IMG/VR virus record: IMGVR_UViG_3300032006_002703
Coordinates: 43,411 to 107,410 of that record
Length of the DNA: 64,000 nt
Origin: a virus
Reading direction: 5' to 3' (one strand)
A program made the position numbers and the translations under genes. Of this stretch, positions 1-57,894 are shown one piece after another. Below the pieces are notes generated by a model. The model had not been told where the DNA came from and ran no database searches. It saw only the letters and a list, made by a program, of their open reading frames with translations. Positions within the stretch are counted from its first letter, which is position 1. Every line of letters begins with the position of its first letter.

Positions 1-1919
1 GCTCCATAAATGTTTAAGTTTAGGCCAACTCTTTTTGAGGCTTCAAAGATTAAATTTAAATAATACTGAGGGTCTCCCTCTGATTTTGCGTGATATTCGT
101 CACTGAATACTATTCCATCTTTATTTTTTATATGATGTAAATTGTTGTCTCTGTAATACTTTTTAAGGTTCGCATTTTCTAGATAACCCTCTCCTCTCCA
201 AGCGCATTCGACTAGTTCTTTGAAAGATTTTGCAAATGTTCGCCCTCTGTCCACTTGGAACATAATCCCACGGTAAAGCCCACCATAACCATTAAGTGAT
301 CCTTTAAGCTTTCCTAGGTCAGTGCTATACGCATCTTGAGGATGCTTATTGAAGTTGGGTAAGTGATAGTCTGGTGCAGCTTCGTCTTGAAATGCTACAG
401 CTAAAACATTATCCTTTTTCGCTGCCTCTGTAAAAAATTGAAGCGTTCTTTCTCCTGCATCATCTACTATAGTAACCCTTCTGTTGTATAAATTTTCATC
501 ATTATTGTAATATGGGAGGAGCGCCTGCTTTAAGAGAGTTTCCTTCATGATGTCCAATTGCCTTCTTGTTGCCAGGATGCTTCCGCTGCCATCAACGTGA
601 ATCATTATATGTAAAGCTCCATCTTTAGGTAGGTGGTCATAATTATATTCTCTCCCGTGCCCATGGTGTCCATGGCAATTTGCCCCATGCTCTGCACAGC
701 CGCCTTGCCCGATACCTAAGCCTAATTTTTCGGTAACCGTTCCTGTTACTAGCCCTGCAGCTCCACCAGCGCCAGCCCCGCTTGTTAATCCGCCCACCCC
801 GCCAATTTGAGGAAGGTCAACATTCCCAGGATTTGAGGGGGTGCTTTCTTTATTTAGAGGATTAGAATAATTGGCGAGCTCTTCTCCATCGTTAATTCCA
901 TCCCCGTCCGTGTCTGCGCTATTTGGGTTTGTTCCTATCTGAGCCTCCGTCGAGGCTGGGAGCCCATCACCATCTCTATCGTTTTCTGGAGTAGCTTTAA
1001 GGTTTGCAGGCATAAGGGGAGAGGTTCCAACCCCTCCAAGAGTAGGAACAGCTTTTCCATTTAGTACTGCTTCTCCAACTCCCGCTCCAATTCCCGCTCC
1101 GCCTCCAGCGCCAGCGCCAACCGCACCACTACCTATTCCTGCACCGACCCCTTGGCTTGGATAATTATAAGCGTATAAATCTCCCTTGCCAAGCCCATTT
1201 CCTTTTTTCTCTGCATCGTCATTATTTTTAAGACTTTCTAGGTCTAATTCAAAATCTGGCACATCGTCTTTTGCTAAAGTTAAATTCGTAAGAACTTCTT
1301 CATCTTCCGTATCGATCCCCACCTTGCTTTCTGCCAATCTGCGATCCAGGATCCCCTTATCAAAGTCTCTTTCTCTTATGGCTCTATCTAGAGCGCCGAC
1401 ATCAACAGTTCCAATGTCGTCATTATTTACTCCAATATGATTCCTAACGTCCCTATTGTAAATTCCGTCATTTCGACGACCAACAACATCGGAACCTCCT
1501 CCTATTCCACCAATACTATGACCTATCACATCTCTGTCATCAATTATTACATCATCTCTATCGCGAATGACAACATGATCCGTATTGTCGACCACTGCAA
1601 TATGCGGGTTTCTTTCTCCGTCTCTTAAAACAATTACATCTGGATCATCGTCTAAAACTATTCCGTCAAGCCTATCTGGACCCACGTCATAGTCCCGAAC
1701 GGTATTTACATTCCTATCGACATAAACAATTTCCTTTTCTGGCTTTTCCTCGTCTTTATAAACTTCGTGAAAAAGATTTTCTCCATCTTCTATTACGTCT
1801 GCCGTAACGACATGTTCTGTCGATCTGTTTAGAAAAACCAATAAAATAAACATAAGCATCATAAAATACCCAGTAAATAGATTGGCCAGTGATAGTTTTT
1901 TTAGTTTTTTATTATTCAT
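1..1919 (-). CDS. Membrane-anchored Gly-rich protein with TSP3-like Ca-binding repeats and a VWA-like domain (partial, runs off the window)
   Basis: Not in the ORF track; translated by hand from ATG 1919 with no stop to position 1. N-terminal hydrophobic helix (LFTGYFMMLMFILLVFL), DRDGDGLP..E..IGTNP..ADTDGDGINDGEE repeat, His/Cys patch CAEHGANCHGHHGHG, MIDAS-like HVDGSGS. Confidence 0.8.
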   Translation of the reverse strand, partial: MNNKKLKKLSLANLFTGYFMMLMFILLVFLNRSTEHVVTADVIEDGENLFHEVYKDEEKPEKEIVYVDRNVNTVRDYDVGPDRLDGIVLDDDPDVIVLRDGERNPHIAVVDNTDHVVIRDRDDVIIDDRDVIGHSIGGIGGGSDVVGRRNDGIYNRDVRNHIGVNNDDIGTVDVGALDRAIRERDFDKGILDRRLAESKVGIDTEDEEVLTNLTLAKDDVPDFELDLESLKNNDDAEKKGNGLGKGDLYAYNYPSQGVGAGIGSGAVGAGAGGGAGIGAGVGEAVLNGKAVPTLGGVGTSPLMPANLKATPENDRDGDGLPASTEAQIGTNPNSADTDGDGINDGEELANYSNPLNKESTPSNPGNVDLPQIGGVGGLTSGAGAGGAAGLVTGTVTEKLGLGIGQGGCAEHGANCHGHHGHGREYNYDHLPKDGALHIMIHVDGSGSILATRRQLDIMKETLLKQALLPYYNNDENLYNRRVTIVDDAGERTLQFFTEAAKKDNVLAVAFQDEAAPDYHLPNFNKHPQDAYSTDLGKLKGSLNGYGGLYRGIMFQVDRGRTFAKSFKELVECAWRGEGYLENANLKKYYRDNNLHHIKNKDGIVFSDEYHAKSEGDPQYYLNLIFEASKRVGLNLNIYG

Positions 1920-2181
1920 GTCTTGTAATCTTTGAGACCTTAAAGCCTGCGTTCTCTACGGCCTTATGTATCTCTTTGTCTGTTAAGGTTTTTCCTTTAA
2001 TTAAATAAATATGAGCCGTTTCTTTTTTTATATCGAACGCGACCTTGTATACTTTTTTTGTTTTATTTAAATGCTTCTTGATTCCTATTGCACAAGATGG
2101 GCATACAAGTCCCTTTATTTTTGCATCTATAATTTCAGCGGAGCTAGAATTTAAAATAAGCAGGGAGCAGGCTGCGAGCAT
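1912..2181 (-). CDS. Exported heavy-metal-associated (HMA, MerP/CopZ-like) protein
   Basis: GLVCPSCA CxxC motif and C-terminal AVENAGF typical of HMA domains; signal-like MLAACSLLILNSSSA. Start uncertain (ORF track gives 2235). Confidence 0.8.
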   Translation of the reverse strand: MLAACSLLILNSSSAEIIDAKIKGLVCPSCAIGIKKHLNKTKKVYKVAFDIKKETAHIYLIKGKTLTDKEIHKAVENAGFKVSKITRHE

Positions 2182-2257
2182 TAGCGTTTTATTTACGCCC
2201 CTGTATTTCCTTTGTCTAATTCCCATAGATACCAATAATAATCATCCAGCGGATCCA

Positions 2258-2794
2258 TTATTCCCTTCTGTCTTTAGTTTGGACGCGGTTTCTAACCTCT
2301 CTCGCAAGCTCCTTTTTTGCCGCTTTGATTTGCTCGTGTCTTTCTTTTTGAGATTCTTTAAACGATTTAATTAAATCTGCAACCTCTTCTTTGTTTTTAT
2401 TTTTTAAATTTTCTTGCAAAACTTTTCTTGCAAGATGGAGCTCATTCTGCAAAAGTTTCATTGCGTTTACTTTTATTTTAATCTCTTCAATAGGCTCGGG
2501 GCGAGGTCGAGGTTTTCTTCCTTCTTTGTCTGCTTTTATGTTTTCTGCAATCCATTTCGCTAAAGTGCTACTGCCCATTCCAAAACCTCCTGGTAAGGGT
2601 CTGTAGTCTCTTACTTGTAATGCTGGAGGTTTTCCCCAATGTGGAGGAAATGGCTTCCGCTTATTTTCGGATAATTTGGGTTTAACTTTTTCTATTTCTT
2701 TTGTTTGGGGCGGGTTTGGTTTTGACCTTTCTTTTTCGCCGAAAGAAAATCCTGCGACCAGCAGGGTAATTATAATTAAATTTATTGTTTTCAT
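2258..2794 (-). CDS. Secreted basic/helical hypothetical protein
   Basis: Signal peptide MKTINLIIITLLVAGFSFG; ATG 2794 lies 9 nt after a GTGTAT box. Confidence 0.7.
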   Translation of the reverse strand: MKTINLIIITLLVAGFSFGEKERSKPNPPQTKEIEKVKPKLSENKRKPFPPHWGKPPALQVRDYRPLPGGFGMGSSTLAKWIAENIKADKEGRKPRPRPEPIEEIKIKVNAMKLLQNELHLARKVLQENLKNKNKEEVADLIKSFKESQKERHEQIKAAKKELAREVRNRVQTKDRRE

Positions 2795-2825
2795 TAAATA
2801 ATGATACACAAATTAACAAATAAAG

Positions 2826-4109
2826 TCAAGTGGTTAGTTCTTTTAAAACTCTGCCTTGATTTAATATTGGATGTGGCCTTCCGCTGTGATCGTAATATTG
2901 ATGTTTTGGATTAACTCCCATATGGTCATATATCGTCGTTAAAACATCTGGAGGGGTTATGCCTGTTACAGGTTCCGACCCAGTCTTATCGCTTTCTCCT
3001 GCGACCCTGCCCCCTTTTACTTTTCCGCCTGCTATTGCTGCCGCCATTGACCTGGACCAATGGTCGCGACCTCCATTGGCGTTAATTTTTGGGGTGCGGC
3101 CAAATTCTCCCCACGCCACAACCATAACATCATCCATCATTCCTCTTGAATGAAGGTCAATAATTAGTGCGCTAAATGCCTTGTCAAATTGAGGTAAATT
3201 TCTCTCTCCCATGCTTTTGTCGCTAGCCTGATGGGTGTCCCATCCAAATGGAGTTTTTACGGTCACCATTTTTACGCCACCTTCTACTAGCCTTCTGGCT
3301 AAAAGAAGATCTCTGCCAAAACCTTCTCCGTATAACTCTTTTGTGAATGTTGATTCTTTTTCAATATCGAATGCATTTGCGGCTTTGCCGCTGGTTAGCA
3401 ATCCTTGAGCCTTACTGTTAAATTCATCTATCGAATCTACCATTCCAGATTTGTCTAGTATACTTCTAAAGCTATCAAATTCTTTTAATAGATTCTTTCT
3501 ATTGTCAACAATGTCCACAGTTAAAGATTGATCTAAAGTAAAATTTGTATCTCTATACGGAATAGTGCTAGAGGGCCTGGTCTTTGTTTCATAGGGTCCA
3601 AACTCATGCGGTAAATATCCAGGTCTAGTGCCGTTGTTATGATTGGGCACTACGACATATGGCGGAACTTCTGCCCCTTTTGAAGCGTGCTCTGATATTG
3701 TAGAACCTATACTTGGATAGAAATTCTGTTGTTGATTGGGGACGGGGGCCTTATATCCAGAATGCATAATCTCGTGCGCAGAACTATGATTATTATTGTC
3801 GTGATAAAGGCCTTTTATGATTGACCATTTATCCATGCAGTCTGCGCATTTGGCTAAATGTTCGGGCAATTGAATTCCGTCTACCGTGGTGGGTATAGCC
3901 TCAAAATGCCCTTTGAACGGTTGAGGGGCGTAAGGTTTTGGATCAAAGGTTTCATGATGTGAAGGACCTCCGTTCATCCAGACTACTATAACTGATTTAT
4001 TTTTATGTAGACCCGTGCGTTTTTGAGAAGCAAGTAATTGAGGTAATGTCAAATTGTTGGCCCCGAGCATTGCCCCGCTTACTATAAAAGATCTGCGAGA
4101 TAATTTCAT
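2826..4109 (-). CDS. DUF1501 family protein with twin-arginine signal
   Basis: MKLSRRSF N-terminus; GGPSHHETFDPKP, LLARRLVEGGV, WDTH, WGEFGRTPKIN..GRDHW motifs characteristic of DUF1501. Confidence 0.92.
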   Translation of the reverse strand: MKLSRRSFIVSGAMLGANNLTLPQLLASQKRTGLHKNKSVIVVWMNGGPSHHETFDPKPYAPQPFKGHFEAIPTTVDGIQLPEHLAKCADCMDKWSIIKGLYHDNNNHSSAHEIMHSGYKAPVPNQQQNFYPSIGSTISEHASKGAEVPPYVVVPNHNNGTRPGYLPHEFGPYETKTRPSSTIPYRDTNFTLDQSLTVDIVDNRKNLLKEFDSFRSILDKSGMVDSIDEFNSKAQGLLTSGKAANAFDIEKESTFTKELYGEGFGRDLLLARRLVEGGVKMVTVKTPFGWDTHQASDKSMGERNLPQFDKAFSALIIDLHSRGMMDDVMVVAWGEFGRTPKINANGGRDHWSRSMAAAIAGGKVKGGRVAGESDKTGSEPVTGITPPDVLTTIYDHMGVNPKHQYYDHSGRPHPILNQGRVLKELTT

Positions 4110-4124
4110 GCCTTATATATACAC

Positions 4125-4391
4125 TTATTCTTCTTCTTTTTCTGGGAGACTCTCTTTCCATCTCGGCGGATTCAATGGGCATCTGGTTGTTCCCATTAGC
4201 AATTTTGCGCTTGAGCATCCACACGCCCTACATCTCGCAAGAGTGCTATTTCCTAACTCTTGCCACCATTTGCAATCCCTACATAATTCCAGTCGCTCGT
4301 TTAAAACTTCCTTGGTAACCACAGGGTAACCTTGTGATTTCCATTTTTTGAGCGCATTACTTAAATTTTTTGCGAGATCAATAAACTTCAT
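4125..4391 (-). CDS. Small Cys-rich (putative Zn-binding) protein
   Basis: ERLELCRDC...CRACGC...CP..RW pattern common in phage hypotheticals; ATG 4391 preferred to the ORF-track start. Confidence 0.7.
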   Translation of the reverse strand: MKFIDLAKNLSNALKKWKSQGYPVVTKEVLNERLELCRDCKWWQELGNSTLARCRACGCSSAKLLMGTTRCPLNPPRWKESLPEKEEE

Positions 4392-4431
4392 TACATAATA
4401 ATAAAAAACTTGCGAAAGATTTAAATTTTTT

Positions 4432-5028
4432 TTAAAGATCTCCTGCAGCATTCATAATTGCTCCTGCATCTATTCCTTGAAACGGACCAAGCGGCTGCTT
4501 ATTTGTTTCTATTTTATCCAGCACTGGAGAGCCTGAGTGCAAAACATATACTACGGTATCATCAACCAATATTATTAGCGCAGAAAAACTCCAGCCCGTG
4601 CTATGGGTAACTTGCTTAAAAGATAACATGTCTTTCCAAAAGCTTCCAATTCTTTTTTTACTGGTTTGTGATATTACTAATTCATAAGCTTTGCATTTTT
4701 CATGCTGATTTAGTGCGTCCTCTATCCCTGGGGGTAATTTAATACTATTGAAAAGGGTACTATCCAGCTTAAATCGCTCCATCACATCTAAGTAGGTAAG
4801 TGTTTTTAGGTTTGGGGTTGACTTGAAGTCAATGCCTAATTTCCTCAGATCTTCTCTTGTAGTTTTATTTGGAATGATTTTATTTATAACTTGCTCCATT
4901 TGGTTATAGGAGCTCCAGGGAATTGTTGTTCCCTCTTGAGCACTCGGCAAAAGAGTTTTGCAGCTAGATAGAAGTAATACCCCTAGGGCCACCAAGATAG
5001 AGGTTAGCTTATTGCTTTGCCTTAACAT
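4432..5028 (-). CDS. Putative lipoprotein
   Basis: Hydrophobic N-terminus ending in lipobox-like LLLSSC. Confidence 0.7.
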   Translation of the reverse strand: MLRQSNKLTSILVALGVLLLSSCKTLLPSAQEGTTIPWSSYNQMEQVINKIIPNKTTREDLRKLGIDFKSTPNLKTLTYLDVMERFKLDSTLFNSIKLPPGIEDALNQHEKCKAYELVISQTSKKRIGSFWKDMLSFKQVTHSTGWSFSALIILVDDTVVYVLHSGSPVLDKIETNKQPLGPFQGIDAGAIMNAAGDL

Positions 5029-5287
5029 TTTTAACGCCTGTATTTTTTAGCAATTGTGCGCCCATTCTTATTTTAGTTGTACTATTCAATTCCCAAAATC
5101 CTACTTTAGGTAAATATTTATCCATGTATTCACAAAGCTCCTTTCGACTCATGTCTTGAAGCTCTTGATCTATTGGGAGTCCCAAAATATTATCTTTTTC
5201 TTTGTTTGGATATTCTCTAAATTTTTCAACAAAAATATAGAGAGTGCCAACCGAATAGAGTAACCATTTTATTATTAATTGAAACAT
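5009..5287 (-). CDS. Hypothetical membrane-anchored protein
   Basis: ORF coupled to both neighbours; hydrophobic N-terminus. Confidence 0.6.
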   Translation of the reverse strand: MFQLIIKWLLYSVGTLYIFVEKFREYPNKEKDNILGLPIDQELQDMSRKELCEYMDKYLPKVGFWELNSTTKIRMGAQLLKNTGVKNVKAKQ

Positions 5288-5288
5288 A

Positions 5289-5636
5289 TCATCCTTTCTT
5301 TATTTTTCTTTTGGCCTTAACGTAAGGCTTCATTAGGTAATGTTTGATGAATCCTCCAATCATTTGCTTTCCTAGTCTTTTTCTTATTTTATTTTCATAC
5401 CTCGTCATTGGGCAATCAATAACCCTGGAGAATGTAATGACTCCTATAAAAGTACAAAGCGGCAAGCATACATACCACGGTGGATTTTGTGAGGGAGAAA
5501 ATCCATTATATACTAAAATAAAGAACGCTCCAAAATTACCAAAAACAACTAACCAATGGAGTACTACTACAAGCATCAATTTCAGGCTGTCTGTTTCTGG
5601 CAGAAACCCAAAACGGCGGTTTTTGTTCATCAACAT
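5289..5636 (-). CDS. DUF2784-like membrane protein
   Basis: Two hydrophobic helices with a His, then DCPMTRYEN..R...G....GGFIKHY matching the DUF2784 pattern. Confidence 0.7.
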   Translation of the reverse strand: MLMNKNRRFGFLPETDSLKLMLVVVLHWLVVFGNFGAFFILVYNGFSPSQNPPWYVCLPLCTFIGVITFSRVIDCPMTRYENKIRKRLGKQMIGGFIKHYLMKPYVKAKRKIKKG

Positions 5637-5644
5637 GTATTGTA

Positions 5645-7462
5645 TTACACAATACTCTCTAAAAATTCATGTTCCCCATTTAGGATTTCTTTTGCTAGCG
5701 CATAGTTTTTCTTGTCGTTATTTTTTGATATCGCTTTAAATTTTTCCTCTATTTTTATTTTTGAATTTTTAAATACGCAATCCGCTAGCTTTCTTGCTTC
5801 TTTTGTGTTAATCGATTGAGCTCTCGACGAAGAGGCGGCGATAACAAATAATTCTGCACCGATTTCTGCCAGTCTCCCAAGAAGTAGCTGCTGTTTATCT
5901 AGTGCGGGTCCGTATCTTACCATTGAATGAAAAAGCTTTCTCGCAAGCTTTTTGCTAGTTTTTGAAACATACTTTAATTGACCTTTTAAGGCGGGATCCA
6001 TACCATTTGGTATTCTATGAGAAAAAGGGAGCCACTGCTTTGGGTACCATTTTGCATAAAACCATGCCGCTTTAATTGCTGCGACCATTCTTGTTTTCAT
6101 TGGCAGTCTACTGTCTAAAACTGCACCTGCTGCCTTGAGGTGGGGATCTAATGCTTCTCTTGCAAGGATGAGTCGCATTATTTCGCTTGACCCTTCAAAA
6201 ATAAGGTTAATTCTTAAATCTCTAAACATTCTCTCTACTGCAGGGTTAAGTTGCCCTCTGTTTTTTAAAGACTGCGCGGTTTCGTAGCCTCTTCCGCCTC
6301 TAATTTGCATTGTTTCGTCGATCATTTTCCAGGCGGTTTCTGTTCCCCACATTTTTGCTATAGCAGATTCAACTCTAATATCGTGATTTTTATTGTCTGC
6401 CATTTGTGCGGTTAATAGTACCATGGATTCCATAGCAAACGTATTTGCAGCAAGGTGAGCTAACTTATCTGCAATTGCGGAATGTTTTCCTATTACACAG
6501 CCCCACTGTGATCTGGTAGACGTCCACTGTCTGCAAACCTTAAGCATCCATTTTGTTGCGCCAACACATATGGCGGGGAGGGTCAATCTTCCAATATTTA
6601 AAGTTCCCAAGGCAACTTTCATCCCCCTCCCTTCTCCTAGTATAATATTTTCTTTAGGGACGTAAACTTCATCAAATTTTACAACTCCATTGTATAACGC
6701 CTTAAGCCCCATGAACCTGCATCGATTAACTATACTTACTCCTGGCATATCCATGTCTACAATAAAAGCTGTAATTTGCTTTTTTCCATTTTTGTCTGGG
6801 GTTCTAGCCATTACTATGATGTGTTCCGCTTTTAATCCATTGGTGCACCAAAGCTTTTCTCCATTTAATACAAAATGACTTTTGTCTTCTGAGAGCTTTG
6901 CTTCTGTGATCATTTTGGAGGGGTCAGAACCTACTCCATCTTCCGTTAAAGCAAAAGCGCTTACCGCACCATTGCTGAATTTTGGTAAATATTTTTCTTT
7001 TTGCTCTTCTGTTCCGTACATCAAAAGGGGTTGGGGCACGCCTATTGATTGATGCGCGGACAGTAGGGCAGATATATTTCCGCACTCCGAGCCGCAGACC
7101 ATTGCAGCCTTTGAGTAATTTGTTTGAGATAAACCTCTTCCTCCGTATTCTTTTGGGATCTTGATTGCAAAGGCTCCAATTTTTGCCAGCTCTTTAAATA
7201 CCTCATCGGGAATTTCCCCATTTTCATCTATGGCGTCAGGGTCTACGTATTCGGTAAAAACATTTTTTAAATCCGAAGTGAAGTCTTCTCCCATTTTTGA
7301 TTGGTGTTCGTTTTGCTGGGGAAATGGAAATATATCGTTAAAGTTTATATTTCCACTATATAATCCACCTGCAAACGTTTTATTTAAATCCTCTCTCCCT
7401 GCTTCCGCAGCCTCAAGTGCGGCAGCTTTATCTTTCGACATTTTTGATGTATCTATTGACAT
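5645..7462 (-). CDS. fadE: Acyl-CoA dehydrogenase (long-chain, VLCAD/ACAD9-like length)
   Basis: IPKEYGG, AFALTE..VGSD, LNGEKLWCTNG, GGRGY, R.FRDLRI..IFEGSSEI with the catalytic Glu present. Confidence 0.95.
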   Translation of the reverse strand: MSIDTSKMSKDKAAALEAAEAGREDLNKTFAGGLYSGNINFNDIFPFPQQNEHQSKMGEDFTSDLKNVFTEYVDPDAIDENGEIPDEVFKELAKIGAFAIKIPKEYGGRGLSQTNYSKAAMVCGSECGNISALLSAHQSIGVPQPLLMYGTEEQKEKYLPKFSNGAVSAFALTEDGVGSDPSKMITEAKLSEDKSHFVLNGEKLWCTNGLKAEHIIVMARTPDKNGKKQITAFIVDMDMPGVSIVNRCRFMGLKALYNGVVKFDEVYVPKENIILGEGRGMKVALGTLNIGRLTLPAICVGATKWMLKVCRQWTSTRSQWGCVIGKHSAIADKLAHLAANTFAMESMVLLTAQMADNKNHDIRVESAIAKMWGTETAWKMIDETMQIRGGRGYETAQSLKNRGQLNPAVERMFRDLRINLIFEGSSEIMRLILAREALDPHLKAAGAVLDSRLPMKTRMVAAIKAAWFYAKWYPKQWLPFSHRIPNGMDPALKGQLKYVSKTSKKLARKLFHSMVRYGPALDKQQLLLGRLAEIGAELFVIAASSSRAQSINTKEARKLADCVFKNSKIKIEEKFKAISKNNDKKNYALAKEILNGEHEFLESIV

Positions 7463-7463
7463 A

Positions 7464-9446
7464 TTAGTGTGGTCCTGAAAATTTACTATACTCTATGGGG
7501 CCACCCTTAAAGGGTGCCCAACCTGTTCCCATGATCATTGCAAAATCGATATCGTCTGTAGTTTTTGCAACCTTTTCTTGTATGCATTTCTGCGCTTCTT
7601 GAGTCATTGACTCTACCATCTTGCTTTCTATGTCGCACAATATGGGGTTGTCTTTTTGCATTTTTAAAAATACTGGGTTTGGACAGACAGCTTCCCTCCC
7701 TTTATACAGGAAGAATCCTTTTCCGCTTTTTCTTCCAAATTGTTTTGTTTCTAGGATTTTATGAATTATTTGAGGGACCTTAAAATCATCTAGCCTTTTT
7801 TCTAAATCAAGCGCTACATGAGCTGCAACATCGAGACCTATTTCATCAAGCAGTCTTAGCGGACCCATAGGCATGCCAAAATCTAACATACAGTTCTCTA
7901 TGGAGGTTAGCGGGTGCCCGTCCGAAAATAATCTTAAAGCTTCAACAAGATAGGGTAATAGGATTCTGTTAACCAAAAAGCCTGGACTATCCTTAACCAC
8001 TACTGGAAGCTTTCCTATTGAGATTACAAATCTTTTTGCTCTATCTTCTGTCTCTGCGCTAGTTTTCTCTCCAACAACAATCTCAACCAATTTCATCTTA
8101 TGTACGGGATTAAAAAAATGAATTCCCACAAAGTTTTCTGGTCTTTTAAGTCCTTTTGCAAGTTCGGTTATTGACAGCGCAGAAGTGTTTGTCGCGAGAA
8201 TTGCATCTTCTGCTAGCCCGCTCTCTATTTCCTGCAGGACCTTTGTTTTTAATTCGAAATTTTCTACAACAGCCTCTATCGCTAGACTTTGCTTACTAAG
8301 GGGTACAGAGTTTTTTGTGAAGTTCAGTTTTCCCAAACAATCTCTAACTGTGGGCCTATCTATTTTATGCTTAAGTACCGCAGAAACAAAAAGTTTGCCT
8401 ATTTTTTTGAGACCAGATGCTATTGCGCTCTCAGAAACATCCTTTAATAAAACTCTTTTTCCTCTAGAGGATATCCATTGGGCAATCCCTGCGCCCATTG
8501 TTCCTGCGCCAATAACGACAATATCATCATCTATTTGTTTATCAAGTTTCGGGTCATACCATGGCATTCCATGGGGAAGCTTTTTCGCTCTTTCTTGCAG
8601 AAAGAATACTCTTATTAAATTTCTACAAGCCTTAGTTTTTGCGAGAGAAAGGAACCCTTTCTTTTCTAGCTTGAGTGCTGCGTACTTATTTTTAAAAAAA
8701 CTTTTTGCCACAACTTCAATTATTTTATTGGGTGCAGGGTAGTTTCCTCTAGTCTTTTTATAAACACTTTTCTTTGATAGAAAAATTGAAATCGGCAATA
8801 GTATGGCTTGTGTTAATTTATTGACTTTTCTTTTTGGTTTTTTGGAACCACACAAGCTAACGGCCTCTTTAAAAAGATTTTCCTTGTGGCACATCTTATC
8901 CACCATTCCTAATTTAAGCGCTTGAATTGGGGCATAGATTTTACCAGAAAGCAATGCCTGTAGGGATTTTGGTAAACCAATTATTCTTGGCAACCTAGTT
9001 GTTCCTCCCCATGCGGGTAATATCCCAAGCATAACCTCTGGGAGCCCTAGTTTTGTGCATTTTTCATTGGATGCAATTCTGTATTTACATGCAAGAGACA
9101 ATTCTAATCCCCCACCGAGGCAGGCGCCATTGATTGCGGCCACGGTAGGTATACTTAACCTTTCTATTCTATTAAAACTCTCTTGTCCGTAGCGCAAAAC
9201 TCCACGAAGCCACTTTTCGTTTGTTAAATTATCTTTCATGGATAGAAGATCCGCTCCTGCAAGATAAATCGAGGGTTTCTTGCTGACGAAAATAAGACCT
9301 TTAATATCTTTATTTCCTTCGACCTCCTCCAGGATTTCATTCAATCTAATAAAAAAATCCATATTTAAGATATTTGCTTTAGAGTTTGGTTGATCAAACT
9401 CTGCTACTGCAATTCCGTCTGTTATATTAAAATTAATCATTCGCAC
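7464..9446 (-). CDS. fadJ: Enoyl-CoA hydratase / 3-hydroxyacyl-CoA dehydrogenase multifunctional enzyme (FadJ/FadB family)
   Basis: Crotonase motifs AAINGACLGGGLELSLAC and GLPEVMLGILPAWGGT; NAD-binding GAGTMG, ATNTS, GIHFFNP, PGFLVNRIL, GMPMGP. Confidence 0.95.
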   Translation of the reverse strand: MRMINFNITDGIAVAEFDQPNSKANILNMDFFIRLNEILEEVEGNKDIKGLIFVSKKPSIYLAGADLLSMKDNLTNEKWLRGVLRYGQESFNRIERLSIPTVAAINGACLGGGLELSLACKYRIASNEKCTKLGLPEVMLGILPAWGGTTRLPRIIGLPKSLQALLSGKIYAPIQALKLGMVDKMCHKENLFKEAVSLCGSKKPKRKVNKLTQAILLPISIFLSKKSVYKKTRGNYPAPNKIIEVVAKSFFKNKYAALKLEKKGFLSLAKTKACRNLIRVFFLQERAKKLPHGMPWYDPKLDKQIDDDIVVIGAGTMGAGIAQWISSRGKRVLLKDVSESAIASGLKKIGKLFVSAVLKHKIDRPTVRDCLGKLNFTKNSVPLSKQSLAIEAVVENFELKTKVLQEIESGLAEDAILATNTSALSITELAKGLKRPENFVGIHFFNPVHKMKLVEIVVGEKTSAETEDRAKRFVISIGKLPVVVKDSPGFLVNRILLPYLVEALRLFSDGHPLTSIENCMLDFGMPMGPLRLLDEIGLDVAAHVALDLEKRLDDFKVPQIIHKILETKQFGRKSGKGFFLYKGREAVCPNPVFLKMQKDNPILCDIESKMVESMTQEAQKCIQEKVAKTTDDIDFAMIMGTGWAPFKGGPIEYSKFSGPH

Positions 9447-10693
9447 GTCTCAATTTCTATAGCGGACCCCTGGCCTCCGCCAACACAGAGCGAGGCGAGT
9501 CCTTTTTTTAGACCCCTTCTTTTTAACTCTTTAGCTAAAGTAAGAATGATTCTTGCTCCAGAAGCTCCAACAGGATGTCCTAGCGCTATCGCTCCTCCAT
9601 TAACGTTAAATTTCTCATCTGGAATTTCGCCAATATCGTTTTCGATTACTTTCTTGCATGCAAGTGTCTGTGCGGCAAACGCTTCATTTATTTCTATCAA
9701 ATCCATGTCTTTAAGGTTGACTCCAAGTTTCTTGATTGCAAACACTGGGCCAAGGCCCATTCTTTTTGGGTCGCAGCCAACATGAGTGTAATTGTTTATT
9801 TTTGCAATAGGTTTTTTTCCTGTTTTATTTAATCCTTCTTCAGTCATTAACAGCAAGGCAACTGCTCCGTCTGTTACTTGAGAAGAATTACCTGCGGTTA
9901 CCGTTCCTTCTCTTTTGTCAAAAATAGCGCGAAGCCTGTTGAGTTTTTCTGTCGTCGTATCTTCCCTGATTCCATTGTCTTTAGTGATAACTTCGCCGCT
10001 GGGAGAGTTAATGCAATCATCGTTTGAAATGTATATTGGTGATATTTCATCCGCTTGAATAAGACTGGTTGCCATGGAGGCTTTCCCGTGAGAAAGAAAG
10101 GAAAAAATGTCCTGCTCTTTTCTGCTGATTTCATATTCTCTCGCTAAAATTTCTGCAGTCTGCCCCATATTAATTCCAGACAGGGGATCGTGCAGGCCCA
10201 TGCGTAAACTAATTTTTGGAGCTAAATCACTTAATCTAAATTTTAAGATTGCTTTTAATTTCTCTTTTTTTGTTTTTGCCCCGAAGAGAGAAAATATCTT
10301 TTTAGACGTTGATCTTGAAAAAAGCAGGGGCATTTGAGACATGCTTTCCGTTCCTCCTGCAAGGAATATATGGCCTTCATTAGCCTTTGCTTTTGCCGAG
10401 GCACACGTTACTGCTTCGAATCCAGAGGCGCAATTTCTATGAACGGTTACTGCTGGTATATTTTTGGGCAAACCAAGTCTTGTTCCAATAATCCTAGAAA
10501 CATTCATTTCGTCAGCGGGCTGCCCAACGCAACCGAATATAACTTCATCTATCAAACCTAGGTCTATGTCTACTTCAGATAGGACTCCTTTACTCGCTGC
10601 AATCCCTAATGCAGACGCAGATTCCTCTGCAAGAGAGGTTCCCATCTTGCAAAACGGGGTTCTTTTTCCCTCTACAATATATAAGTCAGACAT
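9437..10693 (-). CDS. fadA: 3-ketoacyl-CoA thiolase (FadA/FadI family)
   Basis: RTPF, NCASG (catalytic Cys), VTAGNSS..TDGA, EINEAF, GGAIALGHPVGASG, LCVGGGQG all intact. Confidence 0.95.
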   Translation of the reverse strand: MSDLYIVEGKRTPFCKMGTSLAEESASALGIAASKGVLSEVDIDLGLIDEVIFGCVGQPADEMNVSRIIGTRLGLPKNIPAVTVHRNCASGFEAVTCASAKAKANEGHIFLAGGTESMSQMPLLFSRSTSKKIFSLFGAKTKKEKLKAILKFRLSDLAPKISLRMGLHDPLSGINMGQTAEILAREYEISRKEQDIFSFLSHGKASMATSLIQADEISPIYISNDDCINSPSGEVITKDNGIREDTTTEKLNRLRAIFDKREGTVTAGNSSQVTDGAVALLLMTEEGLNKTGKKPIAKINNYTHVGCDPKRMGLGPVFAIKKLGVNLKDMDLIEINEAFAAQTLACKKVIENDIGEIPDEKFNVNGGAIALGHPVGASGARIILTLAKELKRRGLKKGLASLCVGGGQGSAIEIETCE

Positions 10694-10727
10694 CGGCACA
10701 GTATATAGTAAATAATCTGTGAGAAAA

Positions 10728-11132
10728 TTACATTTTCCTTAGCATTAATATTGTTTTTCTTAGGTCTGGGTCTATAGGTTCTGGCAATTTATCTATCGAA
10801 AAATAATCCCAGTCGTTATGCTCGTAGCCATCTGGAGCACAGACTAGGTTGGGCCTGATTCTTTTAGCGATAGGATAAAGATAGCAAAAGAAATGTCTAT
10901 TGTTTGTTATGCGAAATTTATTAACGAAGGTTAGTGCGTATCTAGTTTTAATGAGAGTTTCTTCATACAGTTCTCTTTCTGCAGCCTTCCAGATCGGCTC
11001 TCCAGTTTCTACCATTCCGCATGGGACGCTCCAGTAGCCTTCTAGTTCTGTCCCCTTTATGCATCTTTTAAGCAATAAAACATCATTCTTGCATTTTAAC
11101 AAAACTCCTGCGACCTTAAGAGAGGAAGTCAT
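10728..11132 (-). CDS. NUDIX hydrolase
   Basis: Nudix box G.VETGE....AAERELYEET. Confidence 0.9.
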   Translation of the reverse strand: MTSSLKVAGVLLKCKNDVLLLKRCIKGTELEGYWSVPCGMVETGEPIWKAAERELYEETLIKTRYALTFVNKFRITNNRHFFCYLYPIAKRIRPNLVCAPDGYEHNDWDYFSIDKLPEPIDPDLRKTILMLRKM

Positions 11133-12195
11133 CTATGATCTCCTTGTTCTCCCAATGCGGACATCCGTCATATTGCATTATTTTAACTCTTTCTCCTTTT
11201 TTCTCCTTGGGACAAAGTGAGCCCCTGTCTTCGTAGAACGCAGTTTTAATTATGTTTTCATCTTTATCTAATAGGGCCACGTATTTCATAGGTTTTCTAA
11301 AAGGACATATATAATTTTTTATTTTTTTTCCTTTTGCATCAAGAAGGAACTCTCCTTTTCTTTTCTTGTATCCCTCCCTTCCGCAGGCCAGTGGTCCTCC
11401 GAAGCTTCCATCGCTTGGGTAATCTTTTTTAGCTGCATACGAGGCCGTTGCGTTTTTGTAAGAGTAATTTTCTAAATATTTTTGTACTGCTGTCAATTCA
11501 TGCTCAAAGCCTTCCAGCTCTTCTTCGCTTATTGATGGCATTTGAATTATTCCTTTGCCTGTTTTTCCTAACAAATCAACTGATAGATCAAACTTAAGAA
11601 ACACAAACTCACTGCTACTTTTGTATTCTGGGTATAAATGCTTAACCGCCAAAGAGTACATTAAATCCTGTAGGTTATCTGTTAGGTCTTTTCCTTTAAA
11701 GGTTTGCTTGCTTGATTTGAAATCTCTAATGTTTGCAGTGCCATCTTTGTACAAAAAAAGCTGGTCAATGAAACCTCTTATAGAATATTTTAACGAACCT
11801 TTATTTATGTCTATATTGAATTCTTTTTCTATAAATCTCTTTTTAAGATCTTTATTTTCGTCTCCATAAAAATCATAGCCCAGGCCGTTGACAATCATTC
11901 TGTTCATGTCCTCCATGTTTTCGTCGTCAATAACGGAAAGTCTTTTTGCGTGGGATTCGATTAACTCTTTAATTTCTGGAACGCACCATACATTTCTTTC
12001 TTTTAATATTTTATTAAATTGCCTTTTTTTTCCTTTTTGAGCCAGTGTTTCAAAAACTAAATGGCAGATCCAGCCTTTGCTTGCCCCCTCGTTTGTTGTG
12101 TCTGGAAGTTTTAAGATGTACTTGCACCAATATGTCCACGAGCATTGCTGCGCGGTTTTTATTCTGCTCGCGGACAATTTGACAGGCTTATTCAT
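11116..12195 (-). CDS. PD-(D/E)XK nuclease, Cas4/AddB-like
   Basis: LSASRIKT..QC, RGFIDQL, IRDFKSS and C-terminal Cys residues. Confidence 0.8.
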   Translation of the reverse strand: MNKPVKLSASRIKTAQQCSWTYWCKYILKLPDTTNEGASKGWICHLVFETLAQKGKKRQFNKILKERNVWCVPEIKELIESHAKRLSVIDDENMEDMNRMIVNGLGYDFYGDENKDLKKRFIEKEFNIDINKGSLKYSIRGFIDQLFLYKDGTANIRDFKSSKQTFKGKDLTDNLQDLMYSLAVKHLYPEYKSSSEFVFLKFDLSVDLLGKTGKGIIQMPSISEEELEGFEHELTAVQKYLENYSYKNATASYAAKKDYPSDGSFGGPLACGREGYKKRKGEFLLDAKGKKIKNYICPFRKPMKYVALLDKDENIIKTAFYEDRGSLCPKEKKGERVKIMQYDGCPHWENKEIIDDFLS

Positions 12196-13237
12196 TTATT
12201 AAGTCAAGAAGTATCTTTTTGTTTTTTAGCAACTGTTTTGATAACTCTTTATTCTCTTGCATTTCTTTAATTATTTCTAGAATAAATCTCCTCTGCTCTA
12301 TTTCTTTAATTTCTGTTTTTTTATTTTCCCATTTAAGGAAGTCCTTCTCGTCCATATCTCCGAAGTCATTTTTTACTGGTAGACAGAGCATTATTTTTTC
12401 TGGCGGAAAATGAGATAAGAGCTTTAAATAATTTTTAACGGAAGCTTTAAGGCCTCTATTTTCTTCCTTGCCTAAATCGTTATTGAATGCAATTATTATT
12501 TTTTTTGGACATAAGGATATTAGCGCACAAATTAATTTTGGTGAGATACTAAGACCGAAAGATACTAATGTGTTTTTATGGCCAAATTCTTGACACTTTA
12601 GTAAATCCCCTATGCTTTCCACTAGGATCACTTCATCCTTCTTTAAAATGCACTCCCTGGTCTCGCTATCTGTATACAGTGGATATATCCAGCTACTTTT
12701 TCTTCCAACATGTTTCCACTTTGGTCTCATAGAATTTTGGAGCATATCTCTTCCTGAAAACCCGTGGATTTGTTTATGTTCGTTATATATAGGGAATACG
12801 AATCTCTGATTTAGTTGTCCCGAGGTCGCTCTCCCTCCTTTAAGATTCTTAAGTATCTTGCTTGAGATTCCTTTATCATTATAGAATTTATAATGTGGAA
12901 GTAGTCTTTCTAGGCAGGATTCGTCATGAATTTCTTCTAGTTCGATTTTTTGTGGAGCGCATCTTTTACTATAAAGTTCGTCGATTTTATTATTTTTAAA
13001 ATATTTATTAATTTCTTTCGGGTCATTAGTTCCCAAGGTTGCTTGAATTAACCTTTTAAGCGGTGAGAATCGAGTGCCCTTAACGTAATCTTTCCACACT
13101 CCTGTATCTTTGTAGATTTGTATGGCTGTTGTATTGTCTCCATTTCTGAATATCGCATTCGTTTGCCAATAGGCGCCCCTGTCCGAGAGTTTGTATCCCA
13201 GGTCCTCTAGCACCTCCTTAATTTGTTCGCTATCCAT
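12188..13237 (-). CDS. DNA primase (DnaG-like, TOPRIM)
   Basis: RFVFPIYN....IHGFSGR, PKWK, VILVESIGD, IIIAFNND, KNDFGDM; adjacent to the helicase. Confidence 0.85.
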   Translation of the reverse strand: MDSEQIKEVLEDLGYKLSDRGAYWQTNAIFRNGDNTTAIQIYKDTGVWKDYVKGTRFSPLKRLIQATLGTNDPKEINKYFKNNKIDELYSKRCAPQKIELEEIHDESCLERLLPHYKFYNDKGISSKILKNLKGGRATSGQLNQRFVFPIYNEHKQIHGFSGRDMLQNSMRPKWKHVGRKSSWIYPLYTDSETRECILKKDEVILVESIGDLLKCQEFGHKNTLVSFGLSISPKLICALISLCPKKIIIAFNNDLGKEENRGLKASVKNYLKLLSHFPPEKIMLCLPVKNDFGDMDEKDFLKWENKKTEIKEIEQRRFILEIIKEMQENKELSKQLLKNKKILLDLINE

Positions 13238-13240
13238 AAT

Positions 13241-14764
13241 TTAAAGAGTCGGGACTGTGTTCTCTCGGTCGCCCCCGTCATCAATTAAAGCTACATCTTC
13301 TAGGATCATATGGTCAACCATATCTCTTAGGTCGCCCTTTTCCGTTATTCCAAAGTTTTCTATCTCAAGGTTGATATAATTTTGTTTAGTGCTTCCGTCT
13401 GCTAATTCTACAGGCTGCAATGCTCTATAAACATCTGGACCTAAGTGCCTATGTTTAAAACAAATTAATTTATGGGTGCCAAAGCCTGCAGGCTCTGAAT
13501 CTAGTTCGTCAAGCGTTTTCTTTCTTAGGCTAAATAGATGAGAACTAAATTGAGTAATTCTGTCAGAAAGAGAAACGATACTTTCATCGTCCACAATTGA
13601 ATCTGAATTTCTATTCGTGGTTATTCCGTACCTATTACTTTGAACACTGGTAATCATTGATATCATAGGATCTCCTTCGAAACATATTTCCTTTTGAACC
13701 AGGGCCTTAAACTTGTCTACCATTTCTCCGACCACCTGCCACTCGTTCTTATTTGAGAATTTCTCTGAGGTTGTCTTGATATAATCAAAACTAAAAATCA
13801 TCTTGTTTCCTCTTCCTACTTTTGCATAATAAAACCTTTTTATAATATTTAACATTGCGTCCACCGAAAGCCCTGCTACGTTATAGTAATAGAATTTTAG
13901 ACTTTTTACCTTAGGCCAAACTGCCCTAACCTTATTGATTACCTCATCCCCAGCTTGTCTCCATTTTCCTGTTTCAAGTAAATGAAGGGGAACCCCAGAA
14001 AGCGCCGCGCACTGACGCATAGTCAGCTCTTCTTTACTCATTTCTCCGTTATCAAAGTGGAGAACTGGAAGGTTTTCTTGAGAGCCTGAAACTTTAATCG
14101 AAAAATCCATACAAAAATTTGTTTTCCCGACTCCAGATCTTGCAACAATTACTGTTATATTTCCTGGCCTAAGGAGGGATCCGTAAAGATCGTTAATTCT
14201 AGAGTGAGGTCCTTCTGGGCCAAAGTCTTCTATGGGATTATTTCCCCTCTCTTCGATCATTTGCTCCATCTCTTCGAATATGTTTTCTGGAGAATCGGAG
14301 CCTTCTTGGTAGGTGTTTATTTGCTCGTTGTAAATTGTATCCGCGCTATTAATTATCTCATCATAAGAGGTTGAGTCTGGTAGTGACCTCATTTTTTTTG
14401 CGACATTAACTGATGCGTCATAAATGCCCCTTCTTACCGAAACTTTTTTTAACTCTTTAGCTGTTTTTATGACAGAGTTTTCTGATATTTTGCGCATAGA
14501 CAGAGCTTTAATGTAGTCTCCTATATTTAGGTTATCCTCAAATGATATCCCCAATGAGCTAACCCTTTGGGCTAATATAACCTCATCAAGAATCTCTCCC
14601 GACTCCAAGGCCTGCTTCAGGACGCAGAATATAGTTTTATTTACTAACGAATTTTCATCGTAGAAGTCCTGCTCAGAGATGAATGGGGCAACCTCAACAT
14701 ATAAATTAGGATACTTCATCAAACCTGCGAGCAAATGCTGTTCGTAATCTAGTGAATGGATCAT
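13241..14764 (-). CDS. dnaB: Replicative helicase, DnaB family
   Basis: Walker A ARSGVGKT, FDNGEM, FDYIK, QSNR. Start reassigned to ATG 14764 from promoter position. Confidence 0.88.
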   Translation of the reverse strand: MIHSLDYEQHLLAGLMKYPNLYVEVAPFISEQDFYDENSLVNKTIFCVLKQALESGEILDEVILAQRVSSLGISFEDNLNIGDYIKALSMRKISENSVIKTAKELKKVSVRRGIYDASVNVAKKMRSLPDSTSYDEIINSADTIYNEQINTYQEGSDSPENIFEEMEQMIEERGNNPIEDFGPEGPHSRINDLYGSLLRPGNITVIVARSGVGKTNFCMDFSIKVSGSQENLPVLHFDNGEMSKEELTMRQCAALSGVPLHLLETGKWRQAGDEVINKVRAVWPKVKSLKFYYYNVAGLSVDAMLNIIKRFYYAKVGRGNKMIFSFDYIKTTSEKFSNKNEWQVVGEMVDKFKALVQKEICFEGDPMISMITSVQSNRYGITTNRNSDSIVDDESIVSLSDRITQFSSHLFSLRKKTLDELDSEPAGFGTHKLICFKHRHLGPDVYRALQPVELADGSTKQNYINLEIENFGITEKGDLRDMVDHMILEDVALIDDGGDRENTVPTL

Positions 14765-14772
14765 ATTGCTAT

Positions 14773-14801
14773 AGTATAGCAAACAATCCAACGAATGTCA
14801 A
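14773..14801 (-). promoter_or_regulatory. sigma70-type promoter for the helicase/primase block
   Basis: TTGACA-17nt-TATACT, 8 nt before ATG 14764. Confidence 0.8.
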
Positions 14802-15076: not shown

Positions 15077-15097
15077 GTTATTATATACACTACATCT

Positions 15098-19866: not shown

Positions 19867-20442
19867 TTACACCTCTTTGTTTGGCTTCGGGCAGATTTTT
19901 GAAATCATTTGATTTCTATTTTTCCCCGCATAGTACCAATGCCAGGCAATATCTTCCCTCATTTTTTTAATTTCAGCCTCCTTTTTATTGAGTTGATTCT
20001 CTAGTAGATCTAAGCACCTCATGTCAAGATGTGATAGGTCAATTTCTAACTCGACTGCTATCTTTAGTAGAGAATCTACGTCCTTTTTGTTTTTTGCCTT
20101 CGTTGCTTTATTATAGAGGGCTTGTTTTTTCTCTGCTTCGCTTTTTGGTTTATTTATAAGTTTGTCTGGGTGGGTTAGGATTACAATTTTTCTATAAAGG
20201 TCTTTTATCTGTGTTGAGGAAAATATTAGATCCTCTTGTTCTGTTGCTGCTTTTTTTCCTGGAGGGTCTTGGGTTAGGGGGTTTGGTATGTCGTTTTCTT
20301 TGCAATGAGTTATTATTGCCTCTACCCATTCCTTTTTAGCTTCTAGGAAAATTTCTCTGGTTTCATTATAATCTAATTCTATATATTTAGATTTATATTT
20401 AAGTTTTCGAAACCTGGAGGATTTTTGTTCGTCAGGATTCAT
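19867..20442 (-). CDS. J-domain (DnaJ-like) protein
   Basis: IKDLYRKIVILTHPDK with intact HPD motif. Confidence 0.75.
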   Translation of the reverse strand: MNPDEQKSSRFRKLKYKSKYIELDYNETREIFLEAKKEWVEAIITHCKENDIPNPLTQDPPGKKAATEQEDLIFSSTQIKDLYRKIVILTHPDKLINKPKSEAEKKQALYNKATKAKNKKDVDSLLKIAVELEIDLSHLDMRCLDLLENQLNKKEAEIKKMREDIAWHWYYAGKNRNQMISKICPKPNKEV

Positions 20443-43432: not shown

Positions 43433-43467
43433 ACCAAGATATGTTTACACCTAAATGTTAGCCGTTT

Positions 43468-57008: not shown

Positions 57009-57832
57009 AACCATCAATTTCAGACCCCAAGTGGCGCCTTAGATTTTTTAAAGATCTGCAAAAAAGATTTTTTGAGTTAGAGAGAAAAATCTCTATTGTA
57101 ATTCAAGGTCCGCTCCATAAGAGGTCGATCAGAACTATTCCACATTATCTAAAATATGGAGATGTTGTAGTTTCCTGCTGGGACAAAGATGACTTAAGCT
57201 TACTGAGGGAGTATAGAGATAAAGTAACACTTGTTGTAAATAAACGGGAAGAGGTTCCACGCAGCAGACTCAGATCATTTGGAAGGCATGGGCCAAACCC
57301 ATGGATTTTACAAAATTATTCTTCATATCACGGAGTAAGTGCGGCAGATGGATTCTTTGCGATTAAACTAAGGTCGGATGAGTCGTATCCAGACCTTAAT
57401 GCAATAATTCATAAATTATATTTCTGGAATGAGGATACAAAATTTTCCACAAAATTCATAACCTCAGATATTTATTTCAGATTCGATAGGGAAGAACCAT
57501 TTCACCCATCAGATCATATAATCGCAGGCAAAAGAGATCAATTAAAAAGAGGTTTCGAGAGAGCTATATTTAATGCAAGGGCAGAAATTCAAAAAAAATA
57601 CGCTTTCCCAGAAAGATTGATTTGCGAATCCTTTTTAGAGACGATCTGGGATCCTGAAGCCAAATGCTTTATTCGTGCAGAGAAAAGCAGGTCAAAGGAA
57701 TTAATGAAAAAGTATTTTGATATAATACCTATTCGTCTATTAAAAGATTTTACATGGTCTTCAAGCTATAGGAAGTATGAGGGATTAAAACAGCCAGAAT
57801 TGGGGTGGTGCCAGGATATAAGTGCAATATAA
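57005..57832 (+). CDS. WavE-like polysaccharide synthesis protein
   Basis: ISIVIQGP, VVSCW, Q..S...G, AIKLRSD, FHPSD, PE. Confidence 0.7.
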   Translation: MKPSISDPKWRLRFFKDLQKRFFELERKISIVIQGPLHKRSIRTIPHYLKYGDVVVSCWDKDDLSLLREYRDKVTLVVNKREEVPRSRLRSFGRHGPNPWILQNYSSYHGVSAADGFFAIKLRSDESYPDLNAIIHKLYFWNEDTKFSTKFITSDIYFRFDREEPFHPSDHIIAGKRDQLKRGFERAIFNARAEIQKKYAFPERLICESFLETIWDPEAKCFIRAEKSRSKELMKKYFDIIPIRLLKDFTWSSSYRKYEGLKQPELGWCQDISAI

Positions 57833-57894
57833 TTTTCGTTGAAATTCTTGTTTTTAAGACTACTATTCAAATAGAGGGTGTACATTTATACATT

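Follow-up and report, generated by a model that had tools for sequence, protein, structure and literature searches.

Metabolic genes carried by phages form a known class, and lipid catabolism is among its least documented parts; indeed a survey describes auxiliary metabolic genes (AMGs) of lipid metabolism as 'still poorly characterized in phages' (PMC7678222). Reads of fadB and fadL occur in Pacific Ocean viromes, where they were taken to indicate energy generation (PMC4053976), single fadJ and fadD genes have been found on phage contigs from polyhydroxyalkanoate bioreactors (PMC12013262), and the giant virus PkV RF01 encodes an acyl-CoA dehydrogenase (ACAD), an acyl-CoA synthetase and a lipase, while a 2022 review states that hydratase and thiolase are not found in any giant virus (PMC9270025). 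Furthermore, fatty-acid degradation was raised in phage-infected Pseudoalteromonas under low phosphate (PMC11170926). These reports share the idea of virus genes that push infected cells towards fatty-acid oxidation, but they concern single genes or read-level signals, whereas the locus described here encodes the four core reactions of beta-oxidation in one conserved operon that is found on assembled phage genomes. The operon consists of a thiolase gene, a FadJ-like gene and an ACAD gene and occupies positions 5645 to 10693, on the minus strand, of a 64,000-nucleotide stretch of viral DNA (the window), which is the final 64 kb (record positions 43,411 to 107,410) of the linear, 107,410-bp IMG/VR virus record IMGVR_UViG_3300032006_002703 (G000), a genome of 76% completeness according to CheckV.

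We consider it likely that an uncultured marine tailed phage carries this locus as a genuine auxiliary metabolic operon, that it stems from Verrucomicrobiota, and that it aids beta-oxidation in the infected cell, and it would as such be a further variant within the known class of AMGs. A full-text search of the literature found no description of a complete phage beta-oxidation operon, and a search of 50,697 GenBank phage records gave FadB/J matches at 28-39% identity only; those listed come either from a small number of large records (multi-contig or genome-shotgun) whose annotation shows ordinary cellular fad and paa genes, or from short records without annotation. The notion of the initial annotation that a whole operon is very unusual for a bacteriophage is thus in agreement with both the GenBank search and the 2022 review, and an intact core beta-oxidation operon is indeed rare for any virus. 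Contigs of bacterial genomes filed as phage seem to account for CAKLQH02/CAKLQF02 (Acinetobacter phage MD-2021a), AGRM01000003.1 and AFYI01000004.1 (filed under Salmonella enterica), all from the phage collection, in which fadB, fadJ and paa genes are found.

Identity of the three enzymes

The first gene of the operon (9437..10693, minus strand) encodes a degradative-type thiolase (acetyl-CoA C-acyltransferase) of 418 amino acids, as judged from its Pfam domains (Thiolase_N, 2e-61; Thiolase_C, 1e-43), from its score of 407.7 bits on the NCBIfam subfamily TIGR01930 (cut-off 240.55) and from its motifs. The catalytic motifs are complete in alignments to 4E1L and 4C2J, comprising the Cys in HRNCASG, the Asn of NEAF, the His of GHP and the Cys of CVGGGQG, and the protein also matches FadI and TFE-beta; its scores are below the equivalog cut-offs of FadI (NF006516, 310.5 vs 560) and FadA (NF006510, 284.3 vs 519). 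The second gene (7464..9440, minus strand) encodes a FadJ/FadB-type enoyl-CoA hydratase / 3-hydroxyacyl-CoA dehydrogenase of 658 amino acids when counted from the ATG at 9440. Its open reading frame (ORF) opens at a GTG at 9446, but the stop codon of the thiolase overlaps the ATG at 9440 in the sequence ATGA, which probably makes this ATG the real start. The protein has a crotonase domain fused to the NAD-binding and C-terminal domains of 3-hydroxyacyl-CoA dehydrogenase (ECH_1, 3e-32, residues 9-213; 3HCDH_N, 3e-55, 309-486; 3HCDH, 2.5e-24, 489-581), and its best solved relative is E. coli FadJ (8BNU, 7e-119), to which it aligns across 646 residues, stopping about 45 residues short of the end of the E. 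coli chain. Compared with this enzyme it keeps the hydratase Glu pair (in GGGLELSLAC and GLPEV), the NAD site GAGTMGAGI and the His of GIHFFNP, the comparable known enzymes being E. coli FadIJ (the anaerobic trifunctional enzyme; 8BNU, 6YSV), FadBA and the mitochondrial trifunctional protein. It likewise scores below the equivalog cut-offs of FadJ (NF008363, 542.4 vs 869) and FadB (NF008727, 516.6 vs 870), and is therefore best regarded as a predicted enzyme of FadJ/FadB architecture and chemistry that is no strict ortholog.

The third gene (5645..7462, minus strand) follows after a gap of 1 nt (TAAtATG) and encodes a VLCAD/ACAD9-like long ACAD of 605 amino acids with the N, M and C domains of the family and an ACAD9/ACADV_C domain (PF21343, 2.7e-08; 34.6 bits, cut-off 27.8). 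Among solved structures ACAD9 (4.6e-85) and VLCAD come closest. The protein shares the architecture of these enzymes (8PHE, 2UXW, 3B96) down to the C-terminal extension, and also their catalytic Glu motif, although it is a bacterial/phage protein and VLCAD and ACAD9 are mitochondrial. Within LIFEGSSEI, the catalytic Glu is matched in the alignment by that of the corresponding ACAD9 motif, and it is invariant among 14 relatives. An assignment to the E. coli FadE type could be ruled out, since the protein scores 108.6 bits on NF038187, against a cut-off of 1300, and has 605 amino acids where that type has about 814.

All four reactions of the spiral are thus encoded, namely dehydrogenation by the ACAD, hydration and NAD-dependent oxidation by the FadJ-like protein and thiolysis by the thiolase, and judged by their intact motifs all three enzymes look active. 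This agrees with the initial annotation, which had placed three tightly coupled minus-strand genes with intact catalytic motifs at these positions and had assigned the four steps to them. The scores under the equivalog cut-offs do mean that the proteins, which would act like FadI, FadJ and a long-chain ACAD, are not their strict orthologs.

The operon is part of a phage genome

The contig is viral, being an IMG/VR virus record with a terminase, a conserved head module and replication genes, and the initial annotation was right in treating it as a phage and not as cellular DNA. It encodes a large terminase (phrog_2, 7.6e-26), a DNA polymerase and a ClpB-like ATPase in addition to nrdAB, DnaB, primase and RecA. 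The terminase has more than 595 relatives in IMG/VR at 69-74% identity on contigs of up to 195 kb, and the order terminase, portal-sized gene, 231-amino-acid gene, capsid-sized gene is kept in more than 40 of the contigs of these relatives. The terminases of cultured phages are distant (24-27% identity), a PHROGs search gave no match for the portal-sized or the capsid-sized protein, and the latter likewise had no match among GenBank phages. No terminal repeat was seen on the 107,410-bp contig, and the genome, which we assign to an uncultured marine tailed phage, would be about 140 kb in size.

The contig extends for about 49 kb on one side of the operon and about 53 kb on the other, and the immediate setting is between nrdAB and a run of replication genes. 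Viral genes flank it on both sides, as is required of a host-derived metabolic gene if it is to be called an AMG, with nrdAB, the polymerase and the terminase on one side and NUDIX, nuclease, primase, DnaB and RecA genes and a further 50 kb on the other. Furthermore, contigs from three other studies span both operon borders at 97-100% identity; the NUDIX/thiolase junction is crossed by X2 record 15 (10254-11257) and X4 record 23 (10558-10863), and the ACAD/DUF2784 junction by X2 record 10 (5545-7158) and X7 record 25 (5046-5797). The linkage is repeated in a 48-kb IMG/VR contig (G001), which has the terminase (71% identical), the capsid-sized gene (73%) and the DNA polymerase (70%), and which also carries the FadJ end, an 80%-identical ACAD and the same downstream genes. 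The composition of the fad genes is that of the phage: the GC content at third codon positions (GC3) is 0.32-0.34 compared with a genome mean of 0.36 and with 0.52-0.84 in cellular homologs, and the correlation of relative synonymous codon usage is 0.79-0.86 for the fad genes vs a median of 0.78 for the rest of the phage. We can conclude that the operon is a real part of the phage genome and not a misassembly; the long integration that had been claimed for it is borne out by the bridging contigs, by the phage-like codon usage and by the divergence and selection of phage copies treated below.

The notion that the fad genes might nonetheless be host DNA, either on a cellular contig, in a chimera or in a prophage record with host flanks, stems from the facts that they are ordinary genes of cellular metabolism, that the neighbouring DUF1501, HMA and TSP3 genes are host-like as well, and that a related record, G002, is flagged 'provirus' by IMG/VR. 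It is already contradicted by the position of the operon deep within the contig, by its phage composition as opposed to that of Verrucomicrobiota, by the recurrence of both junctions in the assemblies of other studies and by the linkage to terminase and polymerase in G001. In addition, copies with phage context fall in a clade of their own and are at most 57-61% identical to any cellular copy, and G002 itself has a uniform GC content of 0.32-0.37 across 80 kb and matches several phage protein families. We therefore regard this explanation as extremely improbable.

Origin of the operon

The best cellular ACADs among 185,579 species genomes are nearly all from Verrucomicrobiota, at no more than 57% identity, and a metagenome contig of 50% GC (L175) has an ACAD that is 61% identical. 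The closest cellular operons keep the order thiolase-FadJ-ACAD, with identities of 50-61% for the ACAD, 45-55% for the thiolase and 37-47% for the FadJ-like protein. In a FastTree phylogeny of 260 ACADs the copies with phage context (10 of 10) fall in one clade of 99 members, which includes no named cellular sequence and takes 99 of the 120 best database matches (clusters at 90% identity); a viral origin of the other 89 members is what we infer from the ten whose context is known. With IQ-TREE the phage-containing ACAD clade (support 100/99) is nested in a clade (96/95) that holds an Opitutales metagenome-assembled genome (MAG) and Opitutus, and in a concatenated tree of the three genes the phages form a single clade (SH-aLRT 99), which is sister to the Opitutales MAG and L175. 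In the thiolase-only tree the phage copies are not one group (2 changes, weak branches), and one origin is still compatible with it. Phylogeny and closest cellular operons alike thus point to Verrucomicrobiota, near Opitutales, as the donor lineage, which fits the link to the Planctomycetota-Verrucomicrobiota-Chlamydiota (PVC) group proposed earlier, and the host of the phage is probably a marine Verrucomicrobiota bacterium near Opitutales.

The operons of Verrucomicrobiota (L175, L092, L109, L132, L146; Opitutales MAG L099) have the same three enzymes in the same order and with the same tight spacing as the phage, but differ in their GC3, in that replication genes flank the fad genes in the phage, and in how they begin. 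Most operons of the donor type have an AMP-forming ligase directly before the thiolase, and a patatin phospholipase is often found before the ligase; the patatin of L175 carries a cyclic-nucleotide-binding domain, as patatins of such operons often do. The phage is without both genes. Indeed no match to the AMP-binding ligase (PF00501) or to electron transfer flavoprotein (ETF; PF01012) was found on the whole 107-kb contig, which extends to 76% of the genome what had been noted for the window, and patatin, Abhydrolase_6, GDSL_2 and GDPD likewise had no match on the contig. Neither activation nor an electron outlet is accordingly encoded on the part of the genome at hand. The ligase is also missing from G001-G003. 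In four fad-bearing virus records, this contig among them, neither ligase nor patatin turned up, and ETF and further lipase families were likewise without a match.

It may be proposed from these comparisons that the three fad genes correspond to the end of a lipid-catabolic operon of four to five genes that is common in Verrucomicrobiota, and in which a patatin phospholipase regulated by cyclic nucleotides, an AMP-forming acyl-CoA ligase, the thiolase, the FadJ-like enzyme and the VLCAD-like dehydrogenase would follow one another. The fad genes would have been captured as a block, fitted to the composition of the phage and retained under purifying selection. Such a capture would have been selective, the spiral enzymes alone being taken from a longer host operon and the lipase and ligase left behind.

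Maintenance, distribution and mobility

Pairwise ratios of nonsynonymous to synonymous substitution rates (dN/dS) among five closely related phage copies, which exclude the window's own subclade with its ACAD relatives at 73-89% identity, since dS against L085 is saturated there, are 0.04-0.2 for each of the three genes, and the genes are thus under purifying selection. The gene order is furthermore retained among phage copies that are only 46-65% identical in amino acids. The operon accordingly appears, on these sequence comparisons, to be a long-term resident of phage genomes that is selectively maintained.

The distribution of the operon is patchy. The ACAD is absent from all 22 searched records with a related terminase, two of which are at least 90% complete, most others being fragments of 28-53% completeness. 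The relative G009 is 93% complete and has no fad genes, and its backbone from nrdB to NUDIX, nuclease, primase and DnaB is conserved in the same order; the slot between nrdB and the NUDIX run, which measures about 10.7 kb here, is filled with about 16 kb of unrelated genes in G009 (L257, G009:C1:21000-40999). The slot is hence a cargo island of variable content, and the fad genes are part of it. This location, together with the absence of the operon from two near-complete and 20 fragmentary relatives, is what might suggest a decaying or neutral passenger without any role in infection. The explanation is nevertheless highly improbable, since every frame is open and no catalytic residue has been lost, since dN/dS is low, since the three-gene order is preserved at such low amino-acid identity and across two phage types, and since the phage-containing clade takes the great majority of the best database matches.

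The second of these phage types is represented by the IMG/VR contigs G002, G003, L087, L171 and L172, in which the operon is followed by an L-serine dehydratase gene (sdaA-linked loci L086-L088, L171 and L172). The phage of the window appears to be of a different genome type from the sdaA-linked one, with a terminase clade of its own, and G002 shares only 11 of 111 ORFs with its contig, namely the three fad genes, DUF2784, nrdA, nrdB, three ORFs matching the one trypsin-like peptidase gene of the window, a weak RecA match and one other. No homolog of the terminase, the capsid-sized protein or the polymerase was found in the parts of G002 and G003 examined. Since the fad block occurs with nrdAB, the trypsin-like peptidase and DUF2784 in this second type, it seems to have been exchanged between phages. 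In the second type the trypsin-like peptidase gene is situated between nrdA and nrdB beside the fad operon and is split into three ORFs in G002, and the operon is accompanied by a rich catabolic cargo of an Ldh_2-family dehydrogenase, a class-III aminotransferase, an M20 peptidase and a DNA methylase (L086:11842-21389, L087:5294-6373, L172:5127-6233).

In a third set of phage-like contigs a GDPD gene on the opposite strand is inserted between FadJ and ACAD (L176:4214-4870 and L174:1345-1980, both minus strand), and a ClpP-like gene is found near it in L176 (7512-8258). Two large IMG/VR contigs (L089 and L090; 171 and 152 kb, GC 48-50%) have a lone ACAD of 629 amino acids and 45% identity with neither thiolase nor FadJ nearby; in the tree these ACADs sit beside a Fibrobacterota sequence, in the clade most remote from that of the phages, and are thus a separate case of viral ACAD. 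Public records label two further ACADs, P0010 and P0119, 'DNA polymerase II'; the former is 73% identical and comes from a 17.7-kb contig that was assigned to a Candidatus Woesebacteria bin, in all probability by mis-binning of phage DNA.

Proposed role in the infected cell

As to timing, substrate and benefit we infer the following. No promoter box of its own is found ahead of the thiolase, and the operon is therefore probably read through with the replication genes. With its products the infected cell would gain additional capacity for the beta-oxidation spiral, in which the ACAD would oxidise acyl-CoA to enoyl-CoA and pass the electrons to the ETF of the host, the FadJ-like enzyme would hydrate the product and then oxidise it with NAD+, yielding NADH, and the thiolase would free acetyl-CoA. 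The host would have to supply the release of fatty acids by a lipase, their activation to acyl-CoA by a ligase and the re-oxidation of the flavin. At a time when host gene expression declines, lipid from membranes, stores or import could in this way be turned into ATP, reducing power and acetyl-CoA, and the suggestion of the initial annotation that the phage burns host lipid for acetyl-CoA and NADH is in this sense plausible.

Alternatively the operon could be phage-borne and active and yet serve a purpose other than bulk energy from host lipid, such as the removal of free fatty acids or lysophospholipid products, the use of imported fatty acids, the supply of acetyl-CoA for the large glycan-modification gene sets of the phage, or the recycling of phospholipid under phosphate stress. 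Without the donor's lipase and ligase the phage would not itself mobilise membrane lipid, and the neighbours of the operon in other phages, with GDPD between FadJ and ACAD in L174 and L176 and serine dehydratase, Ldh_2, aminotransferase and M20 peptidase elsewhere, suggest a general catabolic and phosphate-scavenging cargo. This is furthermore reminiscent of the finding that fatty-acid degradation in the virocell goes up specifically under low phosphate (PMC11170926). On the other hand, the chemistry is identical in all readings, acyl-CoA being converted to acetyl-CoA, NADH and reduced flavin, so that the readings differ only in the product that matters, and sequence separates none of them; the VLCAD-like ACAD and the place beside nrdAB and the replication genes suit a role in energy and precursor supply at least equally well. 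We therefore deem such another purpose unlikely, and prefer an operon that aids beta-oxidation for the benefit of phage replication.

It should also be mentioned that several facts weigh against this preferred reading. The 76% of the genome that is covered encodes neither a lipase nor an acyl-CoA ligase, and neither ETF nor ETF-quinone oxidoreductase, and the pathway hence needs the host, while the absence of the operon from two near-complete relatives makes it dispensable for this phage group. As to the origin, the trees were calculated under LG+G4 only, and the low-GC phage rows of the concatenate have a deviant amino-acid make-up that could inflate their grouping; the phage rows of the ACAD-only alignment were not flagged for deviant composition. 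Furthermore, the capsid-sized protein was not confirmed by fold, the AlphaFold model having a mean predicted local distance difference test score (pLDDT) of 39 with a 16-sequence alignment, and the donor lineage need not equal the present host.

A wider proposal, which we put forward tentatively and hold to be possible rather than probable, is that marine phages of Verrucomicrobiota belonging to at least two unrelated genome types share a mobile module for the whole core of beta-oxidation, the first complete virus-encoded spiral, with which the infected cell would burn imported lipid or lipid of its own for phage replication. An intact four-reaction operon is under selection, and about a hundred protein clusters from marine metagenomes represent it; the hypothesis that some phages pay for their replication with increased fatty-acid oxidation in the cells they infect thereby becomes testable. 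If true, phage infection would be a direct route of lipid-carbon turnover in the sea. The operon may in addition serve as a marker for phages of marine Verrucomicrobiota, and would be a metabolic module common to unrelated phage genomes.

Gene neighbourhood and start signals

On the same strand the operon is preceded by genes for NUDIX (10728-11132), a PD-(D/E)XK nuclease (11116-12195), a DnaG-type primase (12188-13237) and DnaB helicase (13241-14791), all assigned by Pfam and located on the minus strand, with RecA likewise upstream on this strand beyond the run. The spacer between NUDIX and thiolase (10694..10727, minus strand) is 34 nt long and not 35 nt as first given, its existence as a same-strand spacer being otherwise as described, and a scan of it found no strong promoter and no strong terminator.

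The pentamer GTGTA, often in the form GTGTATATA, is found 8-12 nt ahead of start codons throughout the contig, examples in the window being 5645-5650, 4119-4124, 15085-15090, 19867-19872 and 43445-43450. It occurs within 25 nt upstream of the start in 12 of 114 ORFs, compared with 0.45 expected, and 21 of the 47 GTGTA sites of the contig have an ATG 5-13 nt further on; the box has the appearance of a promoter or start signal that is specific to the phage and leaves hardly any leader. It is absent ahead of the thiolase and present before a 92-amino-acid gene upstream of DnaB and at the ACAD stop, where the last codon and the stop of the ACAD form a GTGTAA box (5645..5650, minus strand) 9 nt before the ATG of the next gene. 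The sequence and the enrichment both agree with the earlier observation that GTG TAA doubles as the box of the following gene. As an argument against misassembly, for which it had been used, this overlap does indicate adaptation to the gene signals of the phage, but the bridging contigs, the composition and G001 are stronger.

The gene that follows the box (5289..5636, minus strand) encodes a DUF2784 protein (Pfam, 2e-09). Six phage-like loci have a homolog of it adjoining the fad genes whereas the cellular loci have none, and DUF2784 thus travels with the phage fad operon. The rest of the cargo island (3..5287, minus strand, with Pfam assignments) holds ORFs of 92, 198, 108 and 183 amino acids, a DUF1501 protein (2826-4109), an HMA-domain protein (1912-2235) and a TSP3-repeat protein (3-1919) that runs past the window edge, all on the minus strand, and these genes recur in the same order in the relative G001/L085. 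The DUF1501 family is typical of Planctomycetes and Verrucomicrobia. The protein encoded here falls in a phage-like clade of its own at 58-85% identity, after which identity drops to 45%, with Opitutales as the first named group, and its relatives are found on long contigs of up to 187 kb. The 198-amino-acid ORF (4432-5028) has no Pfam match, and a 33%-identical homolog is found beside the ACAD in one cellular locus (L199:11856-12497), so that it may have been captured together with the operon.

On the far side of the island, just before the window, nrdA (with ATP-cone) and nrdB of a class I ribonucleotide reductase are adjacent at G000:C1:39867-43374 (L251:2868-6375). Both converge on the fad island, and nrdB is 87-91% identical in terminase relatives without fad genes. 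The sole tRNAs of the contig are two adjacent tRNA-Ser (anticodons GCT and GGA) at G000:C1:7192-7372 (L001), and a trypsin-like peptidase gene is found at 57805-58833 of the window, in this phage far from the fad genes.

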